Below are positions 1-1,290 of a stretch of 1,290 nt of DNA, in pieces. A program made the translations under genes and the position numbers. This DNA is from Naegleria gruberi. Lineage: Eukaryota. Location: assembly GCA_000004985.1 (NCBI GenBank), contig GG739452.1; one strand, written 5' to 3'. Position 1 is the stretch's first letter; each line of letters starts with the position of its first letter. A model generated the notes under the pieces. The model had not been told where the DNA came from. It was given only the letters and a program-made list of their open reading frames with translations, and did not search any database.

Positions 1-455
1 AGGTTGATTGTTTTTGTGGAAATTTCACAATACGAAATCTTTACAATGCAGATCGAATCAATACTTAACTTCAATTTCATCCGTTAAATTAATACTACCA
101 CATCTTGTAAACTTGCTGTTATTTTCCACAATTTCTCAAATGTAGGTCGAGAAAGAATAGAAGTTTCCAATAATTTAGTAGAAGCAAGTTCCAATTTATG
201 TGCAGTAATCGTATAAATGAAGTAACACTTTCGAATGATGAATTAAAGCACATTTTCGGGAATGGTTTTAATTCAACTAGGTGAGCAAACTATTGTAGGA
301 GTATCTAGTTTCTTCCGAAGTAATCAATTACACAATAAACTAACAGTATACAATTTTCCGAATCTTGCGGATCATTCTTGCTCATCAAATTTTGCCATTT
401 TTTTTAAAATTTTTATTTTTGTTGTTTTTAAATTTATTATTATTATTAATTTTAA
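1..455. other. AT-rich, apparently non-coding flank 3' of the LRR gene, either an intergenic region or a 3' UTR. The longest ORFs here are 28 to 44 aa and low-complexity.
   Basis: All six frames are densely interrupted by TAA, TAG and TGA. There is no GC-rich hairpin followed by a T-run on the gene strand. The 395..470 stretch is almost pure A/T. AATAAA occurs on the minus strand at 438..433 and 417..412, but it is expected by chance at this composition. Confidence 0.4.
434..448. repeat. (TTA)5 microsatellite inside the AT-rich tract just 3' of the LRR stop codon.
   Basis: Seen in sequence: ttattattattatta at 434..448. It is embedded in a low-complexity A/T run covering about 395..470. Confidence 0.55.
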
Positions 456-1290
456 TTATTTATACAATTTAATAAGGTTTTTCATTTCACAAAGGCATTT
501 GGCTCCTCCTTTTCCAAAGCAATTGAGGCAAATATTAGGATAGGTCAAGTTTTTCATTTCACTGATGTGTTTAACTCCTTCATATTGAATACAACATTCA
601 GAAATGTCAAGATGAGTTAATTGTTCCATTTCACTAAGTAGTTTGGTTCCTTTCTCTCCAATAATATGTTTACTAATATCGAGTGTGGTCAATTGGTCCA
701 GTCCATGAAGAAAATAAACTCCAGTATCATCAATATTGTTGGATTGAATATTGAGATGAGTTAACTGTTTCATTCTACTAATGTGTTCGAGTCCTTGATT
801 GCCTATTTCATTGAAACTGATATTGAGATTAGTGACCAGTGGCAGCTCACTAATGAACTTGGCTCCTTTTTCATTAATGCAAGCTGTATTTACATTAAGA
901 TTAGTCAATTGTTTCATTTCGCTTATATATTTAGCTCCATCTCCAACACTATTGTAATAAATACGAAGATCTTTTAACTTATCAAGGTTAGTGATATGAT
1001 TGAGTCCTTTACTATTAATATCATTTCTGCCAACATCGAGATAGGTTAATTGCTTCATTTCACAAATGAATTTGAATCCTTCATTTCCAATATTATTATT
1101 AGAAACACTAAGGCAAGTTAATTGCCTCATTTTACTAATCTGCATGGCTCCAATAGCCTCAATCTTGTTGCCACTAATATTTAAAGTAGTCAATTTAGGT
1201 AATTGTCTCAGTTCTTTAAAATAATGGGATCGATAACTAATATTATTAAAAGAAATATCAAGACTAGTCAATGATTTCATCAAACTAAAT
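456..1290 (-). CDS. Leucine-rich repeat protein of the ribonuclease-inhibitor-like (RNI / LRR_RI) type, with at least 12 tandem repeats of about 24 aa. It is 5'-partial: the frame is open to the window edge, and the TTG at 1283 used by the ORF track is probably internal. The stop codon TAA is at 458..456.
   Basis: Seen in sequence: an 828-nt ORF plus 7 further in-frame nt to the edge with no stop. The translation is a regular ~24-aa repeat, for example MKQLTYLDVGRNDINSKGLNHITN / MKQLTNLNVNTACINEKGAKFISE / MKQLTHLNIQSNNIDDTGVYFLHG. It carries the LxxLxLxxNxIGxxGA signature of RI-like LRRs. The residues encoded at the edge (FS-LMKSLTSLDIS) already fit the repeat consensus, so more repeats probably lie upstream. 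Repeat boundaries in + coordinates are 486..557, 558..629, 630..701, 702..773, 774..845, 846..917, 918..986 (23 aa), 987..1058, 1059..1130, 1131..1208 (26 aa) and 1209..>1290. A C-terminal partial repeat MKNLIKLYK* occupies 456..485. Exact family assignment would need an HMM search, which I did not run. Confidence 0.82.
   Translation of the reverse strand, partial: FSLMKSLTSLDISFNNISYRSHYFKELRQLPKLTTLNISGNKIEAIGAMQISKMRQLTCLSVSNNNIGNEGFKFICEMKQLTYLDVGRNDINSKGLNHITNLDKLKDLRIYYNSVGDGAKYISEMKQLTNLNVNTACINEKGAKFISELPLVTNLNISFNEIGNQGLEHISRMKQLTHLNIQSNNIDDTGVYFLHGLDQLTTLDISKHIIGEKGTKLLSEMEQLTHLDISECCIQYEGVKHISEMKNLTYPNICLNCFGKGGAKCLCEMKNLIKLYK
456..1290 (-). repeat. Intragenic tandem repeat array with a 72-nt period (one 69-nt and one 78-nt unit), underlying the LRR units.
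   Basis: On the + strand the motif (g)tttCATttcac or a close variant recurs at exactly 72-nt steps: CAT at 483-485, 555-557, 627-629, 771-773 and 915-917, then 1056-1058 and 1128-1130 after the 69-nt unit. At the intervening steps the corresponding triplet is CAG (699-701, 843-845; Leu-initiated units) and AAG (984-986). Outside this boundary motif the units have diverged at nucleotide level. Confidence 0.85.

Follow-up and report, generated by a model that had tools for sequence, protein, structure and literature searches.

A truncated gene for a GALA-like leucine-rich repeat protein, most likely of a Naegleria-type family

The gene fragment and its repeat units

The DNA analysed here, a 1290-bp stretch referred to as the window, contains the 3' part of a gene for a leucine-rich repeat (LRR) protein. 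The window has a GC content of about 31%, and its sole long reading frame lies on the minus strand, where 277 codons run from 1289 to 459 and the frame is open at the high-coordinate edge. This frame is the longest stop-free stretch of the window. Shuffling its mononucleotides 1000 times gave longest open stretches with a mean of 69 codons and a maximum of 161, compared with the 277 observed. The GC content at the three codon positions of the frame is 38, 29, and 26%. Because the frame is open at the edge, the window holds the C-terminal 277 residues of the protein, and the N-terminus lies beyond position 1290. The original prediction for this DNA had placed the truncation there, and the frame neither breaks nor reaches a stop through the window edge. 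The gene fragment is real. Its features are listed below in the direction of transcription, with their basis in brackets; LRR units 2 to 9 were each placed by the repeat register and the AlphaFold2 model.

459..1289, minus strand: partial coding sequence for the C-terminal 277 residues of an LRR protein, N-terminus missing (open reading frame, translation, LRR_6 match, shuffles, AlphaFold2)
1272..1289, minus strand: tail 'FSLMKS' of an LRR unit that starts outside the window (repeat register)
1194..1271, minus strand: LRR unit 1, 26 residues, LTSLDISFNNISYRSHYFKELRQLPK, irregular (register; AlphaFold2 strand at 9-11 and helix at 22-27, with a lower predicted local distance difference test score, pLDDT, of 71-88)
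1122..1193, minus strand: LRR unit 2, 24 residues
1050..1121, minus strand: LRR unit 3, 24 residues, LTCLSVSNNNIGNEGFKFICEMKQ
978..1049, minus strand: LRR unit 4, 24 residues
909..977, minus strand: LRR unit 5, 23 residues, one residue shorter
837..908, minus strand: LRR unit 6, 24 residues
765..836, minus strand: LRR unit 7, 24 residues
693..764, minus strand: LRR unit 8, 24 residues
621..692, minus strand: LRR unit 9, 24 residues
549..620, minus strand: LRR unit 10, 24 residues, Cys-rich (...SECCIQYEG...) (register and residue composition)
477..548, minus strand: LRR unit 11, 24 residues, Cys-rich and degenerate, LTYPNICLNCFGKGGAKCLCEMKN (register and residue composition)
459..476, minus strand: terminal half-unit 'LIKLYK' (register; AlphaFold2 pLDDT of 52 over the last seven residues)
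456..458, minus strand: TAA stop codon of the LRR gene (open reading frame and translation)

The repeats have a period of 24 residues. Residue self-identity peaks sharply at a lag of 24, where it is 29.6%; every other lag between 18 and 31 gives 3-12%. The DNA itself has diverged direct repeats, 60-77% identical, at spacings of 72, 141, and 144 nt. When the L-T-x-L-x-[IV] strand is used as the anchor, the protein divides into 11 complete LRR units, nine of them 24 residues long, one of 26, and one of 23. Besides these there are two incomplete pieces, namely the end of a twelfth unit, cut off by the 5' edge, and the final six-residue beta-strand. The count of at least 12 units given earlier was therefore essentially right but slightly generous. 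The unit consensus is L-T-x-L-[ND]-[IV]-S-x-N-x-I-G-x-x-G-[ALV]-K-x-[IL]-S-E-M-K-Q, and the motif proposed earlier, LxxLxLxxNxIGxxGA, agrees with it. In some units the motif N is replaced by C or H. The repeat array reaches the very C-terminus, ending six residues before the stop codon, and the protein has no cap, tail, or separate domain after it.

The last two units (477-620, minus strand; residues 224-271) differ somewhat in composition. They are unusually rich in cysteine (C232, C233, C254, C257, C265, and C267). They are also degenerate, with Pro in place of a core Leu in 'LTYPNI' and Cys for the motif Asn in unit 10.

Predicted fold

The protein matches LRR families and is predicted to fold as a regular solenoid. 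Pfam LRR_6 (PF13516) matches seven stretches with a score of 109.5 bits against a cut-off of 23.4 (E=1.4e-32), and LRR_4, LRR_8, and LRR_14 likewise score above their Pfam cut-offs. The AlphaFold2 model, made from a 19-sequence alignment, has a mean pLDDT of 93 and a predicted template modelling (TM) score of 0.92. It contains 11 short beta-strands, each followed by a helix. A significant LRR_6 match and a predicted LRR solenoid were the checks that the original prediction had proposed, and both gave the result it anticipated. Judging from the model, the window protein is almost certainly a curved LRR solenoid of parallel beta-strands, each with a helix.

The closest solved structures are those of GALA proteins. 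In a sequence search of the PDB the top chain was 9j7j, 'GALA protein' (RipG4), with E=9e-32, followed by 4xa9, which is LegL1 of Legionella, deposited as 'Gala protein type 1, 3 or 4'. RipG4 is also at the top rank in Foldseek (E=9e-18). There are 722 Foldseek matches in the PDB at E<=0.001, and the best 50 of these are LRR proteins throughout.

Four groups of known proteins can be compared with the window protein. The GALA/RipG effectors of Ralstonia solanacearum, represented by RipG4, share the 24-residue LRR with N-x-I-G-x-x-G-A. However, RipG4 is only about 26% identical, and the window protein has a different helix sequence (GA-K-x-I-S) and an apolar residue at position 16. Unlike for GALA/RipG, there is no evidence of type III secretion or bacterial origin for the window protein. 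LegL1 of Legionella pneumophila has the same 24-residue unit and the closest backbone, with a root-mean-square deviation (rmsd) of 1.6 A over 231 columns, a target-normalised TM score of 0.86, and 26% identity. It is a Dot/Icm-associated bacterial protein, while the window protein shows neither a bacterial context nor an acidic C-terminal tail. FBXL17 (6w66) and FBXL2 (6o60) have a similar solenoid geometry, with query-normalised TM scores of 0.85-0.90 to the model, and the combination of F-box and LRR is shared by the closest relatives of the window protein. In FBXL proteins, though, the CC-LRR units have 26 residues with conserved Cys, and the identity is 16-18%. Finally, the ribonuclease inhibitors (RI; 4per, 1dfj, and 1a4y) share the alpha/beta horseshoe, and Pfam LRR_6 covers both. 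Their alignment to the model is gapped (326-358 columns for 277 residues), with an rmsd of 3.6-4.5 A and 16-18% identity.

Classification of the repeats

The repeats are GALA-like and belong to the CC-LRR subfamily. They had been described as a textbook RI-like, or RNI-type, array. The part of this description that stands is that the protein is a genuine LRR solenoid matching LRR_6, but the RI class is wrong. True RI repeats have 28-29 residues in the classification of Kobe and Kajava, and their helices are longer. Here the period is 24, the units have 23-26 residues, and the closest structures are RipG4 and LegL1. Kajava, Anisimova, and Peeters (2008) assigned GALA and GALA-like repeats, which are 24 residues long (N-x-I-g-d-x-G-a), to the CC-LRR subfamily and noted that databases erroneously put them in the RI-LRR subfamily (PMC2244805). 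Calling 24-residue IG..GA repeats RI-like is thus a known misclassification.

The repeats resemble those of GALA proteins without being strict GALA repeats. GALA repeats have Ile at position 5, Gly at positions 6 and 9, and a small or apolar residue at position 10, while position 16 has no conserved apolar residue (PMC2244805). Among the nine 24-residue units of the window protein, the Ile is present in eight and the Gly after it in four. The second Gly is present in all nine and is followed by A, L, or V. Position 16, on the other hand, is conserved as Met (six of nine) or Leu (three of nine), and the helix reads GA-K-x-I-S, not GAxALA. Because of these two differences the repeats are classified as GALA-like only.

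Relatives in Naegleria

The window protein belongs to an enormous family, within which it is a divergent copy. When 1.84 billion cluster representatives were searched exhaustively with phmmer, 39,312 of them matched at E<=0.001 and 398 at E<=1e-30, but the maximum identity was 50%, and it is this combination that shows both the size of the family and the divergence of the window copy. A set of about 5.8 billion protein clusters contained no sequence more than 50% identical to the window protein. With an alignment of the Naegleria family as its seed, a profile search gave nothing above 49% identity. The best identity in a word-index homology search was 46%. That search missed P0150 and P0157, which were later found by phmmer, so the recall of the index is incomplete for repeat proteins. 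Arrays of the LRR_6 type are among the commonest repeat domains, and the window copy is one more divergent member, without an informative N-terminus.

The highest identities are to proteins of Naegleria gruberi. The two best matches by this measure, P0150 (XP_002680560, 50%) and P0157 (XP_002675835, 49%), are both predicted proteins of this organism. Further N. gruberi matches are P0152 (XP_002673604, 43%) and P0004 (46% over half of the query), and N. gruberi is also the source of P0164 (XP_002681003), P0191 (XP_002683253), and P0214. Two more matches come from N. fowleri.

The Naegleria proteins share a sequence signature with the window protein. The signature of this 'ISEMKQLT' family is a repeated [ILC]-[SC]-[EKR]-M-[KRE]-[QN]-L-[TI] at the junction from helix to strand, and the window protein carries it. 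The broadened pattern [EKRG]M[KERQ][QNH]L[TI] matches the window protein seven times, and the junction Met is present in six of its nine 24-residue units. Among 210 retrieved proteins, at least two copies of MKQL are found in only six, all from N. gruberi. The resemblance extends to the 24-residue unit with the same signature (...IG.EG.K.ISEMKQLT.L.I), an array that continues to the C-terminus, and a similar low GC content. The genome of N. gruberi has about 35% GC (PMC9928731). The identities to the family (37-50%) are the highest found anywhere. The window protein differs from the family in having no orthologue above 50% identity and in its Cys-rich, degenerate last two units.

From these sequence comparisons, the window gene is most likely a divergent paralogue of a lineage-expanded 'ISEMKQLT' LRR family of Naegleria (Heterolobosea). 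A eukaryotic, heterolobosean-like origin of the DNA is probable; it would then derive from the AT-rich genome of a Naegleria-like protist or from a metagenomic piece of such a genome. The original prediction had offered two branches, an effector if the DNA was bacterial and a member of an expanded family if it came from an AT-rich eukaryote. The second branch fits best, as N. gruberi accounts for all the named relatives of highest identity. The 'ISEMKQLT' signature can be used as a quick pointer to a Naegleria-like origin of short, AT-rich metagenomic fragments.

Relatives in other organisms and the effector question

Comparable relatives with lower identity (39-44%) come from varied sources. 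P0063 is a bacterial LRR-Roc-TIR protein in a Bacteroidota-like gene neighbourhood, and P0083 has a GTPase-like region after its LRR array, as read from the sequence. The relatives in this range include a protein from a Flavobacteriales metagenome-assembled genome (MAG), and proteins from Planctomycetes MAGs have lower identities of 25-32%. P0082 is on a transposon-rich metagenomic contig that looks eukaryotic. P0003 (39% identity) is on a bacterial contig with FtsK, photolyase, and major facilitator superfamily (MFS) genes, and it has a signal-peptide-like N-terminus.

Arrays of this kind occur in varied bacteria. It had been stated earlier that in bacteria they are largely confined to host-associated lineages. 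This is overstated, because similar arrays with 30-44% identity are present in MAGs of Planctomycetes and Flavobacteriales and also in LRR-Roc-TIR proteins whose gene neighbourhoods are those of ordinary bacteria. Since they are abundant in free-living Planctomycetes and Bacteroidota as well as in protists, they cannot be relied on as a sign of a bacterial effector.

Two of the more distant relatives have unusual features. P0075, a 902-residue protein from a Solimicrobium sp. MAG, has an F-box (PF00646/PF12937) together with the same type of LRR and is 35% identical to the window protein. Its architecture is GALA-like, here seen outside Ralstonia in a MAG of the Oxalobacteraceae. P0001 had the best E-value of the first search (35% identity) and has faint Pfam WW-domain matches ahead of its LRRs. 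It is located at 2342-3682 of a tightly packed 9.6-kb metagenomic contig (L001), adjoining an SNF2/ResIII helicase, and this contig may be from a giant virus.

The window protein is unlikely to be a secreted or translocated LRR effector. Under this explanation it would come from a host-associated bacterium and would mimic host F-box/LRR adaptors within a eukaryotic cell, in the manner of the LegL effectors of Legionella, the GALA/RipG effectors of Ralstonia, or chlamydial effectors. The sole positive point for it is that the closest solved structures, RipG4 and LegL1, are bacterial effectors. Also consistent with it are the position of P0003 beside FtsK, photolyase, and MFS genes and its signal-peptide-like N-terminus, the combination of F-box and LRR in P0075, and the low GC content, which is typical of many intracellular bacteria. 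However, the highest-identity named matches are eukaryotic, and they have a repeat signature that is missing from the retrieved bacterial matches. Peptide-pattern scans of IMG/VR, JGI metagenome contigs, and 185,579 bacterial and archaeal species genomes (GTDB) gave no relative confirmed by tblastn, and an exact 31-mer of the window had no match in these three sets. The NCBIfam models for XopAE, XopL, XopAC, and internalin score 18-47 bits, compared with cut-offs of 275-1600. The 455 nt downstream of the gene, which contain neither an open reading frame (ORF) nor a terminator, also argue against an effector gene.

On inspection, the C-terminus of the protein looks unlike a secretion signal of the Legionella type. 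Dot/Icm signals are C-terminal, disordered, about 20-30 residues long, and rich in Glu and small polar residues. The last 30 residues of the window protein include five Lys, four Cys, one Glu, and no Asp. By inspection they lie within the folded final repeat of the AlphaFold2 model and are unlike an acidic, disordered signal. With this structured C-terminus, the low NCBIfam scores, and the lack of a relative among the 185,579 genomes, the earlier description of the protein as a strong effector candidate has no positive support. The original prediction was thus correct in its observation, partly wrong in its label, and over-optimistic in its effector reading. Other searches were also negative. 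An exact-protein look-up returned nothing on record, blastn of the window against plasmids and phages gave no match, and no family of the PADLOC anti-phage defence models matched at E<=0.01.

A viral source of the gene is very unlikely. The gene could belong to a giant virus (Nucleocytoviricota) and possibly have been captured from an amoebal host. Giant viruses typically have AT-rich genomes with very AT-rich intergenic tracts, as in the window, and P0001 is on the tightly packed contig with the SNF2/ResIII helicase. That contig, however, is only possibly viral. Scans of IMG/VR gave neither an exact DNA match nor a relative, and 455 nt without a gene is long for such viruses.

A combination of host and parasite origins can also be imagined. 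The window could be a fragment of an endosymbiont, a pathogen, or a giant virus that lives in a heterolobosean amoeba, has recently captured an 'ISEMKQLT' F-box-like/LRR adaptor from this host, and uses it for hijacking host ubiquitination. This is quite improbable, although the bacterial effectors among the closest solved structures leave room for it. If true, the gene would have passed from host to parasite, as has been proposed for the GALA proteins of Ralstonia, but with a protist as the donor.

N-terminal domains and the possible role of the protein

The close relatives suggest what the missing N-terminus may contain. Seven close relatives were aligned with the window protein, and six of them have the conserved N-terminal motif ...F.DD[VI]C.EI.SF.D...C.LISKQ..N[VI]I...KL. 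N. gruberi is the source of five of these proteins and a sequencing-run assembly (Logan) that of the sixth; their lengths are 263-518 residues. Weak Pfam matches to F-box or F-box-like families are present in P0004, P0152, P0164, and P0191 (E-values of 0.0004-0.2). An N. fowleri relative carries PF12937 and has the annotation 'F-box domain-containing protein'. Based on this motif and the weak F-box matches in the relatives, the missing N-terminus most probably, though not certainly, has an F-box-like adaptor architecture.

A function in ubiquitination would be consistent with this architecture. The eleven GALA-like repeats, with their 24-residue period, would stack into the curved solenoid, and by analogy with its fold family the concave sheet of parallel beta-strands would be a surface for binding protein ligands. 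The full-length protein may be an F-box-like/LRR substrate receptor that takes targets to a Skp1-cullin-F-box (SCF)-type ubiquitin ligase, as FBXL and GALA proteins do. These are both F-box/LRR adaptors (PMC2244805). Such a receptor is the most likely role to suggest, because the array in the Naegleria family usually follows a short, degenerate F-box-like motif, but the assignment as an SCF adaptor is tentative. Taking the parts together, we lean towards a eukaryotic-type LRR C-terminal domain from a Naegleria-like paralogue that acts as an SCF-type substrate receptor.

Several observations weigh against this combined interpretation. The identity to the Naegleria proteins is just 37-50%, and bacterial LRR-Roc proteins attain 42-44%. 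Repeat proteins owe most of their identity to the consensus they share, so the taxonomic margin is modest. The F-box matches of P0004, P0152, P0164, and P0191 are all below the Pfam cut-offs, and the N-terminus of the window protein itself is absent, beyond position 1290. The best matches among solved structures are bacterial effector proteins. In addition, P0157 of N. gruberi has a protein kinase and four DUF4116 repeats before the same LRR array instead of the F-box-like motif, which shows that the Naegleria family is not uniformly F-box-like.

P0157 also suggests a different role for the array. The LRRs of the window might be one module in a larger signalling protein with several domains, for example kinase-DUF4116-LRR or a protein similar to Roco or nucleotide-binding LRR (NLR) proteins. 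The LRRs would then be a sensor or an autoinhibitory domain and not part of an F-box adaptor. At 49% identity, P0157 has this kind of architecture, with the array of the same repeats at its C-terminus. Many of the top phmmer matches have 1000-2500 residues, including the LRR-Roc-TIR protein P0063, P0083 with its GTPase-like region, and P0177, which one source names 'small GTP-binding protein'. The LRRs of NLRP3 and NOD2 match the model with a query-normalised TM score of about 0.8. In the LRR-Roc matches, however, the LRRs are N-terminal to the GTPase, while the array in the window runs to the stop codon. Moreover, the six of the seven closest aligned family members that have the F-box-like motif are short proteins. 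A multidomain signalling protein is therefore fairly unlikely, and the F-box-like adaptor remains the preferred architecture.

The region downstream of the gene

The region downstream of the LRR gene (1-455) consists of two parts that differ in composition. Positions 1-360 have 31% GC, the same as the gene. The part next to the stop codon is as follows.

361..455, no strand: extremely AT-rich 3' flank, GC 17%, without an intrinsic-terminator-like hairpin (composition, repeat, and terminator scans)

This flank includes a 24-nt tandem repeat of 2.5 copies, made up of A and T only, at 397-455, and a (TTA)n-like run at 434-460.

No other gene was detected in 1-455. Outside the LRR gene there is no ORF of more than 45 residues on either strand. 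Neither an Rfam match (E<=1) nor a tRNA or terminator was found in the region, and promoter-like sites are as frequent as expected by chance. The spacing of 455 nt without a gene or terminator fits a eukaryote somewhat better than a bacterium or giant virus, although this is weak evidence. Positions 1-360 could be a decayed neighbouring gene, an intron-bearing gene, or an untranslated region.

The composition of 1-360 also bears on whether the LRR gene is intact. The gene could be a decaying pseudogene or a gene fragment that no longer makes a functional protein. The neighbouring 360 nt have a coding-like GC content yet no ORF, the last two LRR units are degenerate (with the Pro for core Leu in 'LTYPNI'), and the motif N is changed to C or H in some units. 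Against this, 277 codons are free of stops in DNA of 31% GC, the repeat register is kept throughout, and the fold is predicted with high confidence. Decay of the LRR gene is thus highly improbable.

Several candidate features in the downstream region were considered and rejected. One was that a tandem paralogue has its N-terminus here on the minus strand. This was suggested by minus-strand positions 36-113, where '(stop)RMKLKLSIDSICIVKI' faintly resembles 'ERMKLSLICKSDCIKKM' of P0004 (tblastn E=0.08 with a 455-nt database). The stretch of P0004 in question is the region after its F-box-like motif. A hidden Markov model (HMM) of three N. gruberi N-termini gave 2.7 bits for 1-455, and Pfam gave nothing. 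Degenerate LRR units were also not supported in this region, where a two-unit HMM gave -0.6 bits, a score that was equalled or exceeded in 78 of 100 shuffles. Alternative genetic codes (tables 4, 6, 10, and 12) opened no convincing frame in 1-470. Comparison of 1-455 with the retrieved loci by tblastx and blastn gave AT-rich, low-complexity matches only.

The sole terminator-like hairpins of the window are inside the LRR reading frame, at 1109-1129 (AGGCAAGTTAATTGCCT, both strands). They look like a by-product of the codons for '...RQLTCLS...'.

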